In this document: positions 24,105-35,130 of the stretch, piece by piece | Layout of the letters: each line of letters starts with the position of its first letter | Numbering within the stretch: position 1 is the stretch's first letter | Origin: Escherichia phage LHE83 | Direction: 5' to 3' (one strand) | Sequence record: OQ561750 | DNA length: 64,000 nt | Notes under the pieces: generated by a model | What the model was told of the DNA's origin: nothing | The model's database searches: none | What the model saw: only the letters and a program-made list of their open reading frames with translations | Made by a program: the position numbers and the translations under genes

Positions 24105-24380
24105 ATGACTAAAATTGAAATCGTTTCCGAAATTGCTACTATTGTTTCCATTTTGATTAAAACGGATTGTGAAGACATCATGCAACGTCGTGATGAGTTT
24201 ATTGCCTTTTTGAATGAGTTGGGTATTCGTAATGAACATGGAAAGGAACTTAATGGTTTGTCTTATAACAAATTATTTAAGTCATTAACTGAAGATGAAC
24301 GTGACACTCTTATTGAGCAATTTAATGAAGGGTATGAAGATATACACCGTTACTTAATGATGTATACCTCCAATTTCTAA
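24105..24380 (+). CDS. asiA: anti-sigma70 factor AsiA
   Basis: 91 aa; matches T4 AsiA as recalled (IVSILIK...FIAFLNE.G...LI..FNEG.E...RYL.MYT). Confidence 0.85.
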   Translation: MTKIEIVSEIATIVSILIKTDCEDIMQRRDEFIAFLNELGIRNEHGKELNGLSYNKLFKSLTEDERDTLIEQFNEGYEDIHRYLMMYTSNF

Positions 24381-25030
24381 CGGGTTCGACCTAATGTCCT
24401 CCCAGCCTGACCGCACATAGACGAAAGTCTAGGAAATCCTAAATCCGGTTTGATATCATACCAGTACAACGATATCGAGCCGGCGTAGACGTTATCCAAA
24501 TTAAAAAACGGGCACGAAAACATATACGTGAATTGTGTTTTCTTCTTTGTAGGAAGGAATACAGTTTCGGTACTTGATTCAAAATAGTTCCCGTTAACTC
24601 CCGCCATATATTCTACTGACGTTTTGTCAATTGGAAACCCTCCCGTGTTTTTTGCGTCTACCGTTTCCGGTAATTTACCCTCGTAAGCCACCATATCCAC
24701 AAAATAATTCATGTTGGTTGGTCTAAAAGAATATATTGCTGTGAAGTCTGCGCCTGAAGAAGAATGCACTATTCGGAGCTGCTCGATAGCCGCAATTTTA
24801 AATCTATTGTCCTGGCCTTGTCTAATCATTTCAGTATAAGAGGCATAAGTTGTCTCTTTGTAAAAGTTTAGAATATACTCGCCTTTATACCAAACCAATG
24901 CCATAAAGAACAATAATATTACGACTAGGACCCGGGAAAAAACAACTTTCCCGGAAGAAGTATCTTTAAAAATTCTATCAAGAAGTCCAAAAAGTAGGTC
25001 TGATAATGATATTCCTACTTTTGGTTCCAT
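24377..25030 (-). CDS. t: holin T
   Basis: 217 aa; N-terminal TM then large C-terminal domain; colinear with T4 holin as recalled (DRIFKD, YEGKLP, FLPTKK, CPFFNLDN.YAG). Confidence 0.9.
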   Translation of the reverse strand: MEPKVGISLSDLLFGLLDRIFKDTSSGKVVFSRVLVVILLFFMALVWYKGEYILNFYKETTYASYTEMIRQGQDNRFKIAAIEQLRIVHSSSGADFTAIYSFRPTNMNYFVDMVAYEGKLPETVDAKNTGGFPIDKTSVEYMAGVNGNYFESSTETVFLPTKKKTQFTYMFSCPFFNLDNVYAGSISLYWYDIKPDLGFPRLSSMCGQAGRTLGRTR

Positions 25031-25048: not shown

Positions 25049-25056
25049 TATTTATA
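25049..25056 (-). promoter_or_regulatory. late promoter TATAAATA for t
   Basis: Exact TATAAATA on minus strand about 20 nt upstream of holin ATG. Confidence 0.6.
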
Positions 25057-25067
25057 GAGCTTATGCA

Positions 25068-25868
25068 CTATAGCCAGGAACCGTAGATAACACCTGTATT
25101 ATGCCAAGTAGGAGAACTTCCAGCAACAGCAGCTCCTGCGCCGCCACCAGCGCCGACTTTTAGAACTTTACCACCATCAGACCATGCATTCTGACCTGCG
25201 CCGCCTGCATCGCCACCCTGACCAGAGTGGGCATTTCCGTATTGATAACCACCTCCTGGACCATCCAAAGAAGCTCCGCCACCTGAATATCCACCACCGC
25301 CGCCCGGGCCAAATGGACGTCCACCACCGCCACCGATATCTTGCCAGTTAGCACCCGAGTGTACTCGATAGGCAATACCGCCACCGCCACCGCCACCGCC
25401 GCAGATAACCCCACCATTATTAATTCTTAAACGACCGCCAATATCATTTACAATACAAGTTCCACCCCATTGGCCGTTGCCATCGCCACCCGAGTGGGTC
25501 CATCCACCTTGACCACCTCGGCCCCATATATGAACCCCACCACCAATATTCAATTGAACATATTCGTTTGGAGTATCCCCATACATAAAGAACAATGGAA
25601 CATCACGGGTATAAGATACTAATGTACCTGTAAGATTAAACACAATAGGCGCACTACCGGCTTCAAGGCAACGGTCGCGGAACCATTGCCCATTAAAGTT
25701 ATGGTCCGCTCCTAAAGTATGAATAATCTCACGAGACCGACCAGCAAATTGTGACATCCAAGATGGGTTCCCTAGACGCAATTCTCTAGAAGCCGCAGAC
25801 ATCCAACGTTGACCTGTTTCAGCCACTGCTGATGTTCCAATCCAACCAGGTATTCCTACTACTGCCAT
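25068..25868 (-). CDS. 38: long tail fibre tip adhesin gp38 (T2-type, glycine-rich motifs)
   Basis: 266 aa; several poly-Gly blocks (GGGGGGGG, GGGGG, GGGGG, GGG) separating short variable segments; GGAGG SD; directly downstream of gene 37. Confidence 0.75.
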
Positions 25869-25879
25869 AAAAACCTCCA

Positions 25880-25893
25880 GGGCCCGAAGGCCC
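25880..25893. other. GC hairpin (GGGCC-NGAA-GGCCC) between genes 37 and 38
   Basis: Perfect 5-bp stem; T-rich only on the plus-strand side. Confidence 0.45.
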
Positions 25894-25897
25894 TTTC

Positions 25898-28800
25898 TTA
25901 TAATAATGATTTAATTAATGCTTTCAATTCAGCAATTTCAGATTTCAATTCCTTGATTTCGTCAGTATGCTCGTTGATAGTAGCAGTATTTAAACCGATA
26001 ATACCGTTATAGTTCAAACGAAGTAAGCCAGTCTCTTTATCTTCAGTCACAAGTTCAGGCAATACTTCTTGAACTTCCTGAGCGATTAAACCTGCGGATG
26101 GTTTAACTTCGTCTGTAACAGAGTTTTTAAGCAAATAAGTATAACCACCTAAGAGTTTGGATTTCTCTTGAGCGTTATCAATAAGCTTAATTTCCGACTT
26201 ACAGCGAATATCAGAACGGATATAAACGTCGTTAACATCGATATTATCACGAACATACATCCCGGCGTTAACGTTAAGGGCCACGTTGCCAAATGTCTGA
26301 GCAAGTCCGGCTCTAAAACTAAACACACCTTGACCGTTTGCATGTGCGTTGAAAATACCATCGGATTCCCAGACCAATCCAGTGTCAGCGTCACCAATAG
26401 CAATACACGGCGTAGTCCAGGCGGGTTCAACACCGACACCAATACCAGCCCAACCAGAAACAATTCTTCCTGGGGAACTAAACTGACCGTTGGCCTTAAA
26501 TTGATAAACCGCTGCAGGATGACCACTTTCCGGGGTATTTTCTGATGAACGGACAATTATACAACCAGTACCCCATTCAGCATTACCACTGCGTAACGAG
26601 CCTAGTTCTACGCTTGTGTTATATCCATGCCCTGCTGAAGAACTTCGCCCTTTAATAATAGGATAGTACACGTTCCCGTTTAATTCGCCGTGTTCTACAA
26701 ATATAGGGGCTTCAAGACCATACTGCGGGCTAATGGCACCCGGGTTTTGAGAGACCCATCTTGTGGCATTAACGTACATACGGTTTTCACTCATATTAAC
26801 CAAACCAAACCCGCCCGGGCTAAATCCGATTGTCCTGTTATCTGATAAATCAATACCGGTAGTTGTTTTGTAGTTATAAAAAGATACTGAACCGCTTTCA
26901 CCACCTTTACCAACAAACCAACTATTAGCACCACCAACTTCTGAACGAATATGCGAACTATTAGTGGCATTAGGTGCTCTAATTACTAAAGCATCATCGG
27001 CCGCAGCAATAGTCAGCTTACCGGTCATCGTGTCGCCTTCTTTAGCCACACGGGAGGCAATAGCATCATGGATGTTGGTTATATCACCAGCAGAGCTAAA
27101 TAATTTCCAAATATCAGAGAAGATATTACCATTTCGAGCAATAGTAGCTTCACCGCCGCCGACCTGTACGTTATCCGGGAAGTTAACTGTACCGTCAGCA
27201 TTAAATCTTGAGGTATGACCTCCGGTCCCGTCTTCTTTAAGATGGTGTAAAACAAAAGTCCCGGAATTAATTTCAGTACCTAAAGACCAAACAGCTTTTC
27301 CTTGTAAGAATTTTTGCTTAACAATAGGATAATATTTACTTACTGCGTCATCATCAATTTCTTGGAAAACAGGAGCGGCCTGGGCATATTGAATATCATA
27401 ACCACCTGCACCTGCACCATGTCCACCGAATTTAATATAGCCGTTTGCTGCAAAAGAAGCATAACTCAAATCTAGGTCAGGAATAACAACCTTACCTGTA
27501 TCTAAAGCCATACTAAATGGACGGAGTGGGCCTATATCACCGGTCATGCCCTCACCAAATGCAGTAGGAATAATGTGAAGACTTCCTTCTGAACGTCTAA
27601 AAATGACCCCGTAATCGTTGTTCCAGATGCGGAGCCCGTTAACAGCATTTGTAGTAATTTCACCAGCGGTGTGGACCGCTCTATCAACCAAAATATCTTT
27701 TTTAACAACAAGATTTTCGTTAATAGTTTGTTGCCCATTTAATACAGCCTCAATGGTATTATCTTTATTGCGCTGGATATAATGCATCCAACTAATATCA
27801 TCAGATATTTCCATCACGTTTTTACGAAAGCCATCTACTGTATTAAAGGTGTTACCCCATACGGCAATAGACATATTATCAACAGAGCTCTGGCCGGTGG
27901 TATAACCTTTAAAAAGCAAAATCGAGTTGTTATTACGACCGTCAATATTAACAGAACCACCAACAACATCAATATTACCAGGAGTAACTAACAAACCACC
28001 AGCGGTGTTAACGTTTGTAGTACCCTTACCACGGAAATAGTGGTGATAATTGCCACCTTGGTAATAACCTAAAAGAGTTTGACCATCACCAAATGCGTTA
28101 TTATCATGATAAGTAACAACAGTGGCTAATGCATAGTTTTCCGACGGAGGAGTGGTTAAATCGGTACCGTTTACAGAATAACCCATAACCATTTTTCTAA
28201 GACTGGTGGTTTCTGCAGGGCTGTACAGGAAAGTTCTCGTGCCGTTATTAACGCTGAAATAATATCCATCCTGATGCCATTTTAACCCGGTGTCATTATC
28301 GCCAAGAGCAATTGAAGCCGTTCCTAATTCAGAATATCCTTTAGAGTTGCCTGGGGTGCCTACAGAAATAGAATGACCGGCTTTCAATCCGCCAGACCAG
28401 GTAAACGACCAAAGATAAGCTTCTAAGCCATCGCCGGCATACCAGGTTATTCCGTCGTTATCTTTAACTTCATGGAAAATGCTCGAACTAACTGCATTTC
28501 GCATAACACGAAGGTGGTTAATAGCCGTTTCACTTTCAGCCAATGGGTTATTATCGGCCATTGAATAGATATCATAATCGCCTGTCTTCTTCCCATTTGT
28601 AATAACTTTATCGGTCAGAATTTGTGGAGACGAAATAGATTTCCATGCTGATACTTCAGGTGAAGTGAACAAACCATTACCTGAAAATGCATAAGTGCTT
28701 TCGCTTGCAGTAGAATAATCTTGTACACGAATATTAACTACCTGATTGGTCAAACCTGCATTATTAGGAGAAAAGATAATACCACGCTCACGGTCATCGC

Positions 28801-29176
28801 CATCAAAGAAACGAAGGTGAGAAGTTGAAGCGCTCTTAGAAATAAGTTCGCCACCATGGGTCATTATCTGACCTGCAGCAATAATATCACGAGTTACGCG
28901 AGCAATACCGTTGAGATTAAAATCACCAATTTGAGTAAATACACCATTTAGGGTGTAATCGCCGGTCTGGTTGTAGTTACCGTTATGAATAACATTGCCG
29001 TCAATATTACCACCTTTAGCAAAGCCAAGGTCGATAATCGCTCCAGTATCGTCTTTAGTAAAAAGTAATCGGTCCTTTAAGTTAATAGCCAGTTCACCTT
29101 CAGCCAACTGGGCCGGTGTCGGACGTACACCGGCTACTTTACTTCTTTTAAATTGGATTTGCTTTAAAGTAGCCAT
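25898..29176 (-). CDS. 37: long tail fibre distal subunit gp37 with C-terminal intramolecular chaperone-like domain
   Basis: 1092 aa; N-terminus [13 protein letters not shown]...[10 protein letters not shown] matches T4 gp37; last ~105 aa (SDIRCK...[14 protein letters not shown]...) resemble an S74-type autoprocessing chaperone domain. Confidence 0.9.
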
Positions 29177-31037: not shown

Positions 31038-34000
31038 TTATTCAATCCACTCAAACTTAACGGATTTAGTGACCGGGTCAGGAATAATACGAACGTTACC
31101 AATACGTAACCAATCAAGGATTGTAATGTTACCCATTGTAGCGTTATCAGCAGGCAATGCACCAACCTCTTCTGCAGAAGGAGGGTTATCTGCGGTATAG
31201 ACCATAGAGAACGTAGTCCACGCGTTTTTATTTTTCTGCCAGGTACGTGTATAACGAATAGTACCACCATTCAATCCTGTAGGATAGCACACCCAATCCT
31301 GATAACATGAATCCAGAGTATTACCAAACTGAGTTAACGTACCAGGATATTTAACTTCCTTATCACGAACAGAATAATCAAACCAAGTACCACGTAATTT
31401 CTGACCTGATGTACTTAGAACTTCGTCACCAAAACTACCGTCTTCGTTACGATAACGAATAGCCGGAGAACTAAATGCGCCTGTTTCTGTTAACCAACCA
31501 GAAGCATTCCATATCTCGTCAGAAACACCAGCAGGTTTAGTTTGGACCGTATCAATATTAACCTGACGTTTCGTTTTCATCGTCCAATAACCAGGGAACA
31601 GGTTAAATGTGGCCGAATCATTGATATCAACAGACCAGAATCCAACTGTTTCTGCAGTAGGGGCCTGGGATGCTAATGTAGGTTTAACACCAACAGAACG
31701 GACGTATTTTTGAGCAACCAAACCATTATTTGCCGATACCTGTCCGGTGGAAACGATAGTACCTGAAGTAGTTACGTTTTGCAACGAAGACAGAGCAGAA
31801 GCATTTAGTGTGGTTGTAGAAACACCGTTAGAAGTGGTTATACCTGTGATATTAGCGTTCTTGGAAATACTAATAGAACCACTATTAACAGCAAAATCAC
31901 CGGTCGTATTAAAGGTCCAGTAGGAAGATTTTAAAGCACCAGAAGCACTGCTGATATGATGGATTTTAAAATCGCCGGAACCGTCATTTAAAGTACCTAA
32001 AGAGAAAGTACCCTGCCCTAATCGTTGCTTAACAATAGGGTGATAACTAGCATCAACAGTAGAATTTATCTCAGAGAAAATAGGTGCAAAATTAGTTGCC
32101 TGAGAATCCCAAGAACCTGCGCCAGACTGGGGTCCTACAAATTTAATAGATTTACCTGAGCTAACAGATACATCATTTTTAAAAGTAGAATTTCCAGTTA
32201 CTTCTAGAGAACCTAAAATAGTATTGCCAGTAATATTAGCAGTACTAGAAGACACTAGAGGAGCTGCCAGGTTCAATTGTTTGGTCAGGGTTAAAGAACC
32301 ATTAACCGTTTGGTCGACGTCTCTACGAATGAACTGAAGTGAATCCAGGCCATCCAATTTCTCGGAGTTCACAGCCGTAGCATTTATAGGTAAAAAGTTC
32401 TGTAAAGTTTTATTCATCTCGTAAGATGAAACAGCATAACCCGTTTTAGGGTAGTTCGCTGCGTTCAGAACAGTATCATCGTTCTCATAAAGGCCTGTGC
32501 CTGAGTTAAATTTAACACCGGAACCGGTAACTTTATTTCCTGAATGGGTTAAAGCACCTTCGGTTAGTTTAACAAATCCACGACGAAGTGCAGTAGCTTC
32601 CCAAGTGGTTTCGGTTTGTACTACATATTTTAAACCAGAAGGGCTTACAGCCAGAACTTTAGAAGTTCCTGCGGTTGTTTCGGTATTCGTTGCAACACGA
32701 ATAATACCTTCAGAACTTTCAGTAGATTTTTTAGAATGCAATTTCAAAGGAGTGATGATAGTTTTGTCATCAGTACCAACGTTGACTTCGGTCTGGGTTG
32801 CCAGGCGAGCAGTACCACGTTGTGTCTCATTTGCTTCTCTAATATCTAGTGTATAATGGTTCCATAAGGTTCCTGATTCAACCAAACCACTGGCTGCTGA
32901 GACAGAAGTTCTAGCAGTATCATTAAATCTTGTTTTAATTTTCAACGGAGTTGAAATAACATTATCTAACGTACCTGCATCAAATTCTACCTGTGTTGCA
33001 ATTCTAGCAATACCAGTCAATCCTTCCGTAGCTTTCCTATCATTTAACGTCTTAGGCGTTACCGCACGAGTATAATCTGTTCCAGTATCAGTCTCTGTTT
33101 GCGTAGCAATTTCAATTAACCCTGTACGAGTATCAAGAGCCACACGAGCATGTAATGTTTCAGGAGAAACAGCACTGTTGGCAAATCCACTTGCCGATTG
33201 ACCTGCGTTAACTTCAGATTGGTTAGAAAGATATACTGTACCCTGTTGAACTTGGGTAGCTTTATACTGGTCGAGAGCTTTAGGAGAAATAACCAAATTG
33301 CCTACGTTCTTATTATAAACGTTAGTACCTACAGTGTCTCTAGCAGTCGCAGGAGTGGTTCCTACAGTAGAGGTATATGTTACAATACCTGAAAGACTTT
33401 CCGAACCCTGGCGTGCTTGTAGCTTCTTAGGAGTGATGATTGTAGTATCATCTGTACCCGTGTTAGTTTCAACTTGCGTAGCAATTTCAGCAACACCACG
33501 GCGAGTTTCGGTTGCAGTACGTTCGTTTAATTTCTTAGGAGAAATAATCAAATCGTCCTGGAATGCGAAGGTTGTGTCCTGGTTCACCTGAGCAGTAGTA
33601 GCAATACGAGCAATACCACGACGAGATTCAGTCGCCACACGATTAGCTAAAGTCTGCGGAGTAATTGCCAGTTCTTTTTCAGGATTATTTTCATGGTCAA
33701 CGTTTGCTTGAGTCTGGGACGCAAGGGCAATAACACCTAAACGAGCACGAGTTAAATCATCTTTAGAATCCACACGTTCTATAGTAGGAACGTTCTGGGC
33801 AACAACCCAATATTTGCCACCTGTAGTGGTGTCTTCGATATAACTCAGTTCAATAACCGGAGTATAACTTATATTGCCATTAAAGGTCAGTACGTCATTC
33901 AATACCCATTCGGTTTCTGGTGGATATTCTGAACGTTTAGGGAATTGAAGCAACTGGACGGATGAAGCAATCTTATCTCCTACGGCAGCCTTAATATTTA

Positions 34001-35090
34001 CTGTCTGAGCTTTACGGAGATAGTTCAGAGCAATCTTAACGACATCGCCCTGGGCCACACCGGTAGGTAATGTGATATTAATTGTCTGGGGTGTCGTGTT
34101 ATTAGGACCAAAAACAATAACACTTTCGTTAGCCAAGAGTTCAACATCGTCACGAATTACACGTAAACGAGTTTGTCGGTCGCCGTCCCAAACATACCAT
34201 AATTTTTCGGTAGAGTTATAAACAAAGAATCCATCACCTGAAGTACGGAATTCCATGCTATGCTGGCCAGGCTTACCTAATGAAGATGACGCATCAAATG
34301 TTTCAACGATTAAGTGGAATTTACTTCCTAAACCATCGATATCAACGGTTTTAATAATATCACCTTGGTTCGCATACTTAGGAAGAGTAAACTTAATTAC
34401 TGCACCTGAAGTATAACGACGTAAAACGTTATCACCCGCTTGTGATTGGAACTGGGCGGTGTTCGGTTCTACACGAATACCACGTTCTTCATTAGCTGCT
34501 TCCCAGAAATGCCATAAACGGTTGGCAAAGATAATCATATTATAGGAAAAAGGCTTCGTAATTAAGGTCTCAGTGAACTGGTTACCGAAACGGACAATTT
34601 TCTGATTACCACCACCTGGAGCAGAACTAGACTGGAGCTTAATTTCATTATAACCTACACGGCCACCAATATCCTTGATTACGATGGTATCACCATCAGT
34701 AGGGTTCGGAGGCAGGGTAAATGTAGTAAAGCTAGCAGCAGAATCCACAGCAATATATTCACCGGAAGCCAGCTGGCGTGTAGGAGATGCTACGGTAATC
34801 CATTTAGGGTCAGTACGGGTAGCAGTCCAATAACCAGGTACAAAGGTTCCTGCTGGAGCATTGATATCACGTTGAGCAACCCAGATACGTTGGTCATGGA
34901 TTACGGCAAACCCTTTCTTATATCCGCGCGTCTCGTCGTACGCCTGGATGGTGTTCTCATCTATAAAGAATTCAACGTTGACGCCGTCGTCTAATACATT
35001 GTAATCGGCTTTGGCAACATTGATAACTTTCTCGCCTGCAGCATCGAGTCCGGATGTAGCACGGAAGGCAGGTTTTAAAATATCGGCCAT
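31038..35090 (-). CDS. 34: long tail fibre proximal subunit gp34
   Basis: 1350 aa; N-terminus MADILKPAF...NVAKADYNVLDDGVNVEF matches T4 gp34 as recalled. Confidence 0.9.
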   Translation of the reverse strand: MADILKPAFRATSGLDAAGEKVINVAKADYNVLDDGVNVEFFIDENTIQAYDETRGYKKGFAVIHDQRIWVAQRDINAPAGTFVPGYWTATRTDPKWITVASPTRQLASGEYIAVDSAASFTTFTLPPNPTDGDTIVIKDIGGRVGYNEIKLQSSSAPGGGNQKIVRFGNQFTETLITKPFSYNMIIFANRLWHFWEAANEERGIRVEPNTAQFQSQAGDNVLRRYTSGAVIKFTLPKYANQGDIIKTVDIDGLGSKFHLIVETFDASSSLGKPGQHSMEFRTSGDGFFVYNSTEKLWYVWDGDRQTRLRVIRDDVELLANESVIVFGPNNTTPQTINITLPTGVAQGDVVKIALNYLRKAQTVNIKAAVGDKIASSVQLLQFPKRSEYPPETEWVLNDVLTFNGNISYTPVIELSYIEDTTTGGKYWVVAQNVPTIERVDSKDDLTRARLGVIALASQTQANVDHENNPEKELAITPQTLANRVATESRRGIARIATTAQVNQDTTFAFQDDLIISPKKLNERTATETRRGVAEIATQVETNTGTDDTTIITPKKLQARQGSESLSGIVTYTSTVGTTPATARDTVGTNVYNKNVGNLVISPKALDQYKATQVQQGTVYLSNQSEVNAGQSASGFANSAVSPETLHARVALDTRTGLIEIATQTETDTGTDYTRAVTPKTLNDRKATEGLTGIARIATQVEFDAGTLDNVISTPLKIKTRFNDTARTSVSAASGLVESGTLWNHYTLDIREANETQRGTARLATQTEVNVGTDDKTIITPLKLHSKKSTESSEGIIRVATNTETTAGTSKVLAVSPSGLKYVVQTETTWEATALRRGFVKLTEGALTHSGNKVTGSGVKFNSGTGLYENDDTVLNAANYPKTGYAVSSYEMNKTLQNFLPINATAVNSEKLDGLDSLQFIRRDVDQTVNGSLTLTKQLNLAAPLVSSSTANITGNTILGSLEVTGNSTFKNDVSVSSGKSIKFVGPQSGAGSWDSQATNFAPIFSEINSTVDASYHPIVKQRLGQGTFSLGTLNDGSGDFKIHHISSASGALKSSYWTFNTTGDFAVNSGSISISKNANITGITTSNGVSTTTLNASALSSLQNVTTSGTIVSTGQVSANNGLVAQKYVRSVGVKPTLASQAPTAETVGFWSVDINDSATFNLFPGYWTMKTKRQVNIDTVQTKPAGVSDEIWNASGWLTETGAFSSPAIRYRNEDGSFGDEVLSTSGQKLRGTWFDYSVRDKEVKYPGTLTQFGNTLDSCYQDWVCYPTGLNGGTIRYTRTWQKNKNAWTTFSMVYTADNPPSAEEVGALPADNATMGNITILDWLRIGNVRIIPDPVTKSVKFEWIE

Positions 35091-35122: not shown

Positions 35123-35130
35123 TATTTATA
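35123..35130 (-). promoter_or_regulatory. late promoter TATAAATA for gene 34
   Basis: Exact TATAAATA on minus strand about 33 nt upstream of gp34 ATG. Confidence 0.6.

Follow-up and report, generated by a model that had tools for sequence, protein, structure and literature searches.

The tip of the T2/S16-type long tail fibre has already been described for several phages. In S16, a Gelderlandvirus with Salmonella OmpC as its receptor (PMC12892980), gp37 is cleaved at DLNVS^SDRRIKK, by which the docking surface for gp38 is exposed (PMC7917993), and the gp38 monomer is plugged into the gp37 trimer by three tryptophans and adopts a polyglycine-II (PGII) sandwich fold, its eight-glycine run representing helix 3 (151-GGGGGGGG-158; PMC6851490). 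Cleavage of gp37 followed by capping with gp38 has been reported also for T2 and T6 (PMC3157838). The loop definitions A-E used here come from the crystal structure of the adhesin of PP01 (9V85; mBio 2026, PMC12892980), and for adhesins of the OmpA 'type 1' the residues R165, V166, H167, S168, G169 and A170 have been named as those contacting OmpA (PMC12032242). Concerning LHE83 itself—a Dhakavirus with a genome of 170,464 bp (OQ561750; Zhen et al., Poult Sci 2024, PMC10987938)—OmpA was identified as the receptor from a resistant mutant carrying a frameshift in ompA, together with knock-out and complementation experiments, and an antiserum against its receptor-binding protein GP213, reported to be Bp7-gp38-like, was found to block adsorption (PMC10987938). 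The gp37 chaperone, the five-loop mapping, the OmpA 'type 1' class and the crossover point in gene 38 are not covered by that paper (PMC10987938).

The locus described below, located in a stretch of 64,000 nucleotides of the LHE83 genome (the window), very probably encodes the distal tip of a long tail fibre of the T2/S16 type, with the steps from the chaperone cleavage to the binding of OmpA. The receptor-binding tip of LHE83 is an ordinary one, of a kind already known. The locus comprises the following elements:

24377..25030, minus strand: holin gene t (open reading frame).
25049..25056, minus strand: T4-type late promoter motif TATAAATA, an exact motif 18 nt upstream of t.
25068..25868, minus strand: gene 38, tail-fibre adhesin (open reading frame; 266 aa, 26.7 kDa, sequence identical to WEY10218.1).
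25874..25878, minus strand: Shine-Dalgarno sequence GGAGG of gene 38, 5 nt 5' of the ATG, read from the sequence.
25879..25894, minus strand: stem-loop AGGGCC-UUCG-GGCCCU, which separates the gene 37 stop codon from the gene 38 ribosome-binding site.
25898..29176, minus strand: gene 37, distal long-tail-fibre subunit (open reading frame; 1092 aa, precursor of 117.4 kDa, sequence identical to WEY10219.1).

Gene 38 is thus placed between gene 37, immediately upstream, and the holin gene t, downstream, as expected for the adhesin family; the order 37-38-t is shared by T2, S16, RB32, Bp7, NC-G, JS98, AV119, FL08 and PSD2002. The names given in GenBank are 'hypothetical protein' for gp38 and 'tail fiber' for gp37. 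The best DNA matches in the phage collection are NC-G and Bp7 (88-90%), and the GC content reaches a local peak of 0.52 at gene 38 against ~0.39 elsewhere, due to the high glycine content of gp38. Downstream, the 37-38 unit is delimited by the motif TATAAATA, the consensus of the T4 late promoter. The sigma-70 promoter scan of the region revealed no enrichment (15 sites versus 11.9 +/- 4.3 expected), and neither the tRNA scan nor the Rfam scan gave any match in the window.

The assignment of gp38 to the adhesins is based on both family profiles and solved structures. The profile PF05268 (GP38) matches residues 47-266 over its entire length (positions 1-218 of 218) with 212.8 bits (cut-off 25) and 7.1e-63, while PF21721 (Gp38_N) covers residues 1-42 with 73.2 bits (cut-off 25) and 1.6e-20; the protein also matches phrog_2056 (1.2e-105) and, among the solved adhesins, PP01 (9V85; 6.5e-69, residues 40-264) and S16 (6F45_D; 4.8e-53). 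Taken over both gp38 and gp37, the E-values against Pfam and PDB span 1e-12 to 1e-69, i.e. far outside chance. Glycine represents 27% of all residues of gp38 and 39% of residues 108-266. The earlier note had described a 266-aa protein following gene 37 with several poly-glycine blocks, and these have been confirmed as one run of eight glycines (157-164), two runs of five (179-183 and 189-193) and four runs of three (109-111, 196-198, 205-207 and 241-243). The blocks themselves stand, with one small correction: judged by homology with the S16 structure, the Gly-rich part comprises some ten short PGII helices plus five loops at the distal end instead of four blocks only. LHE83 and S16 (6F45; Dunne et al. 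2018) agree in gene order (37, 38, t) and in domain plan; the two gp38 proteins are 53% identical and their three tryptophans and G8/G5 motifs are collinear, the G8 run 157-164 lining up with its eight-residue counterpart in S16. All three tryptophans, W9, W22 and W37, are invariant across 10 aligned adhesins including that from S16. From the matches to 6F45_D and 9V85, a three-layer PGII sandwich is the fold predicted for LHE83 gp38.

An alternative would be that gp38 is an assembly chaperone of the T4 style, absent from the virion, with the receptor being recognised by gp37 itself. T4 does have the same locus (36-37-38-t-asiA), its gp37 is homologous in the N-terminal part, and several GenBank relatives are annotated as 'distal long tail fiber assembly catalyst'; these labels are, however, legacy name transfers, as stated in the own note of the Bp7 record. 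The C-terminus of T4 gp37, moreover, differs in carrying Collar and Phage_fiber domains without an S74 domain, and BLASTP of gp38 against T4 gp38 (NP_049864) found no similarity (E = 0.98; 16% identity over 68 aa). Since the matches to the adhesin families and to the adhesin crystal structures extend over the full length, and the antiserum against the protein—provided that GP213 corresponds to gp38—stops adsorption (PMC10987938), the chaperone function can be given virtually no credence, and the T2/S16-type adhesin, as had been proposed from the sequence, is retained.

Concerning gp37, it matches phrog_1699 over its full length (E = 0), with the Pfam matches Gp34_trimer and gp37_trimer in its upstream part; its shaft is far longer than that of S16 (1092 aa vs 749 aa). 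The features around its C-terminal end are:

26216..26233, minus strand: NDVYIR, gp37 residues 982-987, predicted final strand of the mature fibre.
26213-26215, minus strand: codon of Ser988.
26198-26200, minus strand: codon of Lys993.
25898..26215, minus strand: Peptidase_S74 intramolecular chaperone domain, gp37 residues 988-1092 and stop (105 aa, 11.6 kDa).

That the last 105 residues of gp37 form an S74-type domain, for which a profile search had been suggested in the earlier note, was borne out: PF13884 matches residues 988-1044 over the whole profile (positions 1-58 of 58) with 47 bits (gathering cut-off 22) and E = 3.1e-12, the domain occupies the extreme C-terminus (residues 988-1092 of 1092), and all the peptide strings quoted at that time are present in gp37. 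The upper coordinate then given, 26215, coincides exactly with the first nucleotide of the codon for Ser988, and from Ser988 to the C-terminus there are 105 residues. In the PDB, the tail matched 6F45_A from S16 at 2.4e-23; a single-sequence phmmer search retrieved only S16 and a weak match to MyRF, and a 7-sequence profile of S74 domains was needed before GA-1 and 8JOV came within reach. With this profile, the matches were 6F45_A (3.2e-53), the MyRF ICA 7DC3 (9.1e-11), the tail fibre 8JOV (1.6e-6) and the GA-1 neck appendage chaperone 3GUD (6.1e-4), whereas the chaperone domains of K1F endosialidase and T5 pb1 were not reached as sequence matches. The likeness to the S74 domains of K1F endosialidase, T5 pb1, GA-1 gp12 (3GUD) and MyRF (7DC3) consists in the placement at the C-terminus of a trimeric fibre, the Ser-Lys motif SDxRxK, the G-[LIV]-[IV]-A-Q core and the helical C-terminal tail; the sequence kinship is, however, only distant (6e-4 to 9e-11 by profile), and the LHE83 cleavage product would receive a separate adhesin as its cap instead of being itself a receptor binder or an enzyme.

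The Ser-Lys motif of gp37, S988-D-I-R-C-K993 (SDxRxK), stands at the start of the domain and aligns with SDERHK of 3GUD and ADLRAK of MyRF 7DC3. Neither the 7- nor the 11-phage comparison shows any change of its S, D, R or K, the phages sharing the motif being T2, S16, RB32, LQ5, Bp7, NC-G, JS98, PSD2002, AV119 and FL08. The pentapeptide DVYIR immediately precedes the motif also in the fPS phages, RB32 and LQ5; the docking role of the corresponding strand has been given for S16 and the fPS phages (PMC7917993), and NDVYIR would accordingly serve as the docking platform for gp38 in LHE83. By homology, gp37 is predicted to be cut by its own chaperone domain at Arg987/Ser988, the position of the scissile bond being uncertain by +/-1 residue; for S16, the released tail counts 112 residues from the Ser, as compared with the 'last 113 residues' of the literature (PMC7917993).

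It is also conceivable that the S74-like domain only aids folding and stays uncut on the LHE83 virion, with gp38 binding elsewhere or more weakly. Cleavage is no subject of the LHE83 paper (0 occurrences of 'cleav'; PMC10987938), and the Cys at the variable position of SDIRCK is unusual among the aligned relatives. This position is, however, occupied by L, I or V in other, processed homologues, both catalytic residues and the adjacent DVYIR strand are strictly conserved, and the domain is 100% identical to that of Bp7 and 47% identical to the autocleaved domain of S16, which likewise carries SDxRxK; in S16, moreover, the docking site for gp38 opens only after cleavage (PMC7917993). An uncut gp37 is therefore regarded as very improbable, and the self-cleaved form is preferred.

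The gap of 29 nt between the two cistrons is occupied by the GC-rich hairpin of the UUCG type, with a fold of -12.3 kcal/mol, a value reached in 5 of 500 shuffles. Hairpins with other stem sequences are found at the same position in T2, S16, RB32/LQ5 and PSD2002/AV119/FL08, so that the position, not the stem sequence, is kept across four T-even genera with gp38 adhesins. The hairpin is listed by the scan for terminator-like structures; as an intrinsic terminator it is not canonical, the T-run beginning 6 nt past the stem and overlapping the spacer of the ribosome-binding site. The idea that it is a regulatory element (a partial terminator, a stabiliser of the mRNA 3'-end or a translational gate) and contributes to a gp37:gp38 ratio of 3:1, the ratio following from a trimer being capped by a monomer, is put forward as a rather doubtful one.

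The division of gp38 into domains, with the five loops predicted from the alignment with PP01, is as follows:

25731..25868, minus strand: N-terminal attachment domain with W9, W22 and W37 (segment identities).
25548..25730, minus strand: first part of the beta-helix domain, residues 47-107 (segment identities).
25134..25547, minus strand: specificity domain, residues 108-245, in which hypervariable loops alternate with Gly-rich motifs (by homology, a PGII sandwich).
25470..25502, minus strand: predicted loop A, W123-Q133, aligned to PP01 loop A W119-I124; identical in AV119, FL08 and RB32.
25338..25370, minus strand: predicted loop B, Y167-D177, aligned to PP01 loop B Q161-V170; identical to AV119.
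25287..25298, minus strand: predicted loop C, G191-Y194, aligned to PP01 loop C N184-W189; 2 residues shorter.
25227..25244, minus strand: predicted loop D, Q209-H214 (QYGNAH), aligned to PP01 loop D N204-Y209; identical in AV119 and FL08.
25155..25184, minus strand: predicted loop E, W229-V238, aligned to PP01 loop E N225-S231; identical in AV119 and FL08.

The conserved Gly motifs and the hypervariable segments are collinear with those of the solved adhesins. When gp38 was aligned with adhesins including that from S16, the variable tracks delimited in this way corresponded to the PP01 loops A-E, so that the segments between the Gly blocks, which had been taken for the likely receptor-contact loops, indeed coincide with the loops of the crystal structure and vary among relatives. 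PP01, with the beta-helix, the PGII sandwich and loops A-E, is the best solved match (9V85; PMC12892980), but it binds OmpC of O157, and all five of its loops are unlike those of LHE83 in both sequence and length; compared with S16, loop A of LHE83 is 4 and loop B 6 residues longer. The specificity domain instead resembles those of AV119, FL08 and RB32, all from Tequatrovirus (Lutz et al. 2025, PMC12032242; Trojet et al. 2011, PMC3157838). In loops A, B, D and E, LHE83 agrees with AV119 at every residue, FL08 differing by one substitution in loop B, and RVHSGA, carried by loop B of LHE83, is the motif of the OmpA 'type 1' adhesins. Differences from these three concern the last ~20 residues of gp38 (GPRV there, GSWL in LHE83) and the gp37 tip, which is of another type.

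Based on the loop identity with the OmpA-dependent AV119 and FL08, the OmpA 'type 1' specificity was predicted independently, in agreement with the receptor found experimentally. We infer that GP213 of the LHE83 paper is the gp38 described here, because GP213 was compared there with Bp7 GP38, with a similar N-terminus, a divergent C-terminal HVS and GRMs present. OmpA may, however, not be the sole receptor of LHE83. It could be one of two, with gp38 or the shaft binding also LPS or another outer-membrane protein, which would add to the main reading: deletion of ompA in BL21 lowered the adsorption by merely ~50%, further receptors having been proposed by the authors (PMC10987938), and the adhesin of RB32, 87% identical, is said to target 'OmpA and LPS' (PMC3157838). 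On the other hand, the ompA frameshift by itself makes the natural host E82 fully resistant to LHE83 (PMC10987938), the adhesins of AV119 and FL08, with identical or nearly identical loops, are OmpA-dependent on MG1655, and the leftover adsorption may stem from short tail fibres or non-specific binding. A second receptor is regarded as the less likely case, and OmpA is kept as the receptor of gp38.

The individual parts of gp38 point to different relatives. Its attachment domain is 100% identical to that of NC-G and 98% to that of JS98, but just 50-57% to those of AV119, FL08 and PSD2002; the specificity domain, by contrast, is 99% identical to LQ5, 98% to PSD2002 and 86-91% to AV119, FL08 and RB32, with only 52-54% identity to NC-G and JS98. 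At the DNA level, gene 38 crosses over from Dhakavirus-type to LQ5/PSD2002-type sequence at ~25690-25750, as seen from the sliding-window identity and the segment identities. Judged from these comparisons, gene 38 is a mosaic of a Dhakavirus attachment domain and an imported OmpA-type specificity domain. It should be pointed out that the type of the gp38 N-terminal domain follows that of the gp37 tip in 11 phages, the specificity domain assorting independently.

In the proposed mechanism, gp37 would be made as a 117-kDa precursor, the 105-residue C-terminal chaperone of which would template the trimerisation of the beta-helical fibre and then remove itself by Ser988/Lys993-dependent autoproteolysis at Arg987|Ser988, leaving a mature subunit of 987 residues ending with ...NDVYIR. 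One gp38 would dock on the fresh trimeric end via its N-terminal three-helix attachment domain (W9, W22 and W37), and its Gly-rich motifs would pack into a rigid PGII sandwich, presenting the five hypervariable loops (123-133, 167-177, 191-194, 209-214 and 229-238) that would attach to the extracellular loops of OmpA, thereby determining the host range. For LHE83, we infer the cleavage, the 3:1 stoichiometry and the PGII fold.

The gp38 loop sequence reveals the receptor class, the OmpA 'type 1' prediction made here agreeing with the published experiments. One and the same OmpA specificity domain is found on three attachment domains, each paired with its own gp37 tip, which represents a clean natural case of modular exchange and provides design guidance for the host-range engineering of T-even phages.

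The tail-fibre tip locus consists of three genes reading in the same direction, on the minus strand, and the features relevant to it are the following:

25898-29176, minus strand: gene 37, ORF of 1092 aa
25068-25868, minus strand: gene 38, ORF of 266 aa
24377-25030, minus strand: holin gene t, ORF
31038-35090, minus strand: gene 34
25879-25894, minus strand: hairpin AGGGCC-UUCG-GGCCCU
25874-25878, minus strand: gene 38 ribosome-binding site GGAGG, directly downstream of the hairpin
25049-25056, minus strand: exact motif TATAAATA, 18 nt upstream of t
35123-35130, minus strand: exact motif TATAAATA, upstream of gene 34
24105-24380, plus strand: asiA homologue, 91 aa

gp38 and gp37 match exactly the Escherichia phage LHE83 proteins WEY10218.1 and WEY10219.1, respectively. 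Around the locus, the backbone shares 95-97% identity with the Dhakavirus genomes MX01, WG01, Bp7 and E33, the 37-38 region reaching only 84-90% identity to any record in the phage collection compared. It should be noted that the asiA homologue and t are convergent, their 3' ends sharing 4 nt (24377-24380), an arrangement seen also in Bp7, NC-G and JS98. Neither tRNA genes (ARAGORN) nor Rfam families at the gathering threshold were found in the whole 64-kb window (1-64000).

Concerning gp37, phrog_1699 matches it over its full length as the long-tail-fibre distal subunit. The earlier note had seen in its last ~105 residues a resemblance to an S74-type chaperone and had proposed a profile search of the C-terminus; this search was positive, residues 988-1044 scoring 47 bits against PF13884 (Peptidase_S74, "Chaperone of endosialidase"; curated cut-off 22). 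The domain starts with S988-D-I-R-C-K993, i.e. with the SDxRxK motif, and extends for 105 residues from Ser988 to the end of gp37, the Ser988 codon starting exactly at 26215, the upper coordinate of the span in that note. The S, D, R and K of the motif, as well as the G-[LIV]-[IV]-A-Q core, are invariant across the C-termini aligned (T2, S16, RB32, LQ5, Bp7, NC-G, JS98, PSD2002, AV119 and FL08). A chaperone profile made from seven of these tails matched solved domains outside the T-even group—MyRF 7DC3 (9.1e-11), the tail fibre 8JOV (1.6e-6) and the GA-1 neck appendage domain 3GUD (6.1e-4)—all aligned at SD.R.K. The last ~170 residues match 6F45_A (4.5e-29), the gp37 fragment in the S16 crystal that also contains gp38; the T4 gp37 C-terminus, by contrast, carries Collar and Phage_fiber domains without S74. 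A homologous cleavage site, DVYIR^SD, has been predicted for other T-even phages (PMC7917993), and we infer that the 117.4-kDa precursor would yield a 105.8-kDa mature subunit ending NDVYIR987 and an 11.6-kDa fragment. The LHE83 paper contains nothing on gp37 cleavage (PMC10987938).

The poly-glycine blocks described for the 266-aa product of the next gene are borne out, with G8 at residues 157-164, G5 at 179-183 and 189-193, and four G3; glycine makes up 39% of residues 108-266, which accounts for the local GC peak (0.52) and strong strand skew of the locus. Two Pfam adhesin models, PF05268 (7.1e-63) and PF21721 (1.6e-20), match gp38 over their whole length; a further match is to PHROG 2056 ("tail fiber protein; host specificity"; 1.2e-105), and near end-to-end alignments were obtained with both solved adhesins compared, from PP01 (9V85, 6.5e-69) and S16 (6F45_D, 4.8e-53). 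The protein is thus an adhesin of the T2/S16 type, as had been proposed, and not the T4 chaperone: a T4-type arrangement was rejected, T4 gp38 being unrelated (E = 0.98).

The stop codon of gene 37 and the ribosome-binding site of gene 38 are separated by a 29-nt gap, which is taken up by the GC-rich hairpin (UUCG tetraloop, -12.3 kcal/mol). It occurs at the same place with other stem sequences in T2, S16, RB32/LQ5 and PSD2002/AV119/FL08—in all 9 phages compared—its energy being reached by at most 5 of 500 shuffles in eight of the nine cases; it may stabilise the mRNA, cause partial termination or tune stoichiometry. The T4-type late promoter motif TATAAATA precedes gene 34 and t, with none directly upstream of gene 37 or 38, which suggests that genes 34-38 would be transcribed as a single late unit and t from its own late promoter.

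Gene 38 is a mosaic, as seen from the closest and the more distant relatives of its two parts:

gp38 residues 1-46: closest to Dhakavirus NC-G (100%) and JS98 (98%); distant from AV119, FL08 and PSD2002 (50-57%)
gp38 residues 108-245: closest to LQ5 (99%), PSD2002 (98%) and AV119, FL08 and RB32 (90-91%); distant from NC-G and JS98 (52-54%)

In the DNA, the switch falls at ~25690-25750, and the common backbone resumes near 25060. Across 11 phages, the type of the gp38 N-terminal domain goes with that of the C-terminal 60 residues of mature gp37 (LHE83/NC-G/Bp7/JS98; LQ5/RB32; PSD2002/AV119/FL08), the specificity domain assorting independently of both. A docking adaptor needs such a pairing, which also matches the finding that PP01 gp38 can work with T2 gp37 only once its N-terminal 113 residues have been exchanged (PMC12892980), as well as the anchoring of gp38 on the gp37 trimer by three conserved tryptophans (PMC6851490), the LHE83 counterparts of which, W9, W22 and W37, are invariant in the adhesin alignment.

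As a separate observation, the OmpA-type specificity domain is 97-99% identical in LQ5, PSD2002 and LHE83 (window 25068-26500), all with a Dhakavirus backbone, and sits on three different gp38 attachment domains, each paired with its own type of gp37 tip and chaperone; LQ5 is RB32-like over the whole C-terminal half of gp37 as well as in gp38.

The predicted receptor loops were transferred from the PP01 loop definitions via the HMMER alignment:

gp38 residues 123-133: loop A
gp38 residues 167-177: loop B
gp38 residues 191-194: loop C
gp38 residues 209-214: loop D, QYGNAH
gp38 residues 229-238: loop E

All five coincide with the most variable columns of the 10-adhesin alignment, in agreement with the suggestion that the variable segments are the likely receptor-contact loops. 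AV119 has the same loops A, B, D and E, and FL08 the same loops A, D and E, with one substitution in loop B; the OmpA dependence of both phages is experimental, they are classed as broad-range "type 1", and R165-V-H-S-G-A170 is named as OmpA contacts (PMC12032242). Since these loops match and RVHSGA is present at 168-173, OmpA is predicted from sequence as the receptor. For RB32, whose adhesin is 87% identical to gp38 of LHE83, OmpA and LPS are the reported receptors.

LHE83 has been described as a 170,464-bp Dhakavirus near Bp7, with an RBP, "GP213", resembling Bp7 GP38 at the N-terminus and differing in a C-terminal part with GRMs and divergent HVS regions; GP213 antiserum abolished adsorption, a resistant mutant had an ompA frameshift, and ompA deletion in BL21 halved adsorption, which complementation restored (PMC10987938). 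We infer from this description that GP213 is gp38 of the window. The description fits the sequence of gp38, which at its N-terminus is nearly the same as in the Bp7 group, the specificity domain being only ~50% identical. It should be pointed out that the 3' end of Bp7 gene 38 (HQ829472, L005 ~1100-1350) apparently contains two frameshifts, probably sequencing errors: the last 45 residues of the deposited AEN93874.1 are unrelated, and only with two frame changes is the conserved end (...GAPGRAVFGS, then SPTWGATGAIYGSWL) recovered. The point bears on the LHE83 paper, which takes Bp7 GP38 as its reference RBP.

None of the elements goes beyond what is textbook knowledge of T2/S16-type fibres, and the LHE83 adhesin and receptor are already published. 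Added here are, for LHE83, the S74 assignment with the predicted cleavage site, the five-loop map, the OmpA "type 1" class assignment and the crossover point within gene 38, none of them surprising to a specialist; the predicted use of OmpA agrees with the published LHE83 experiments.
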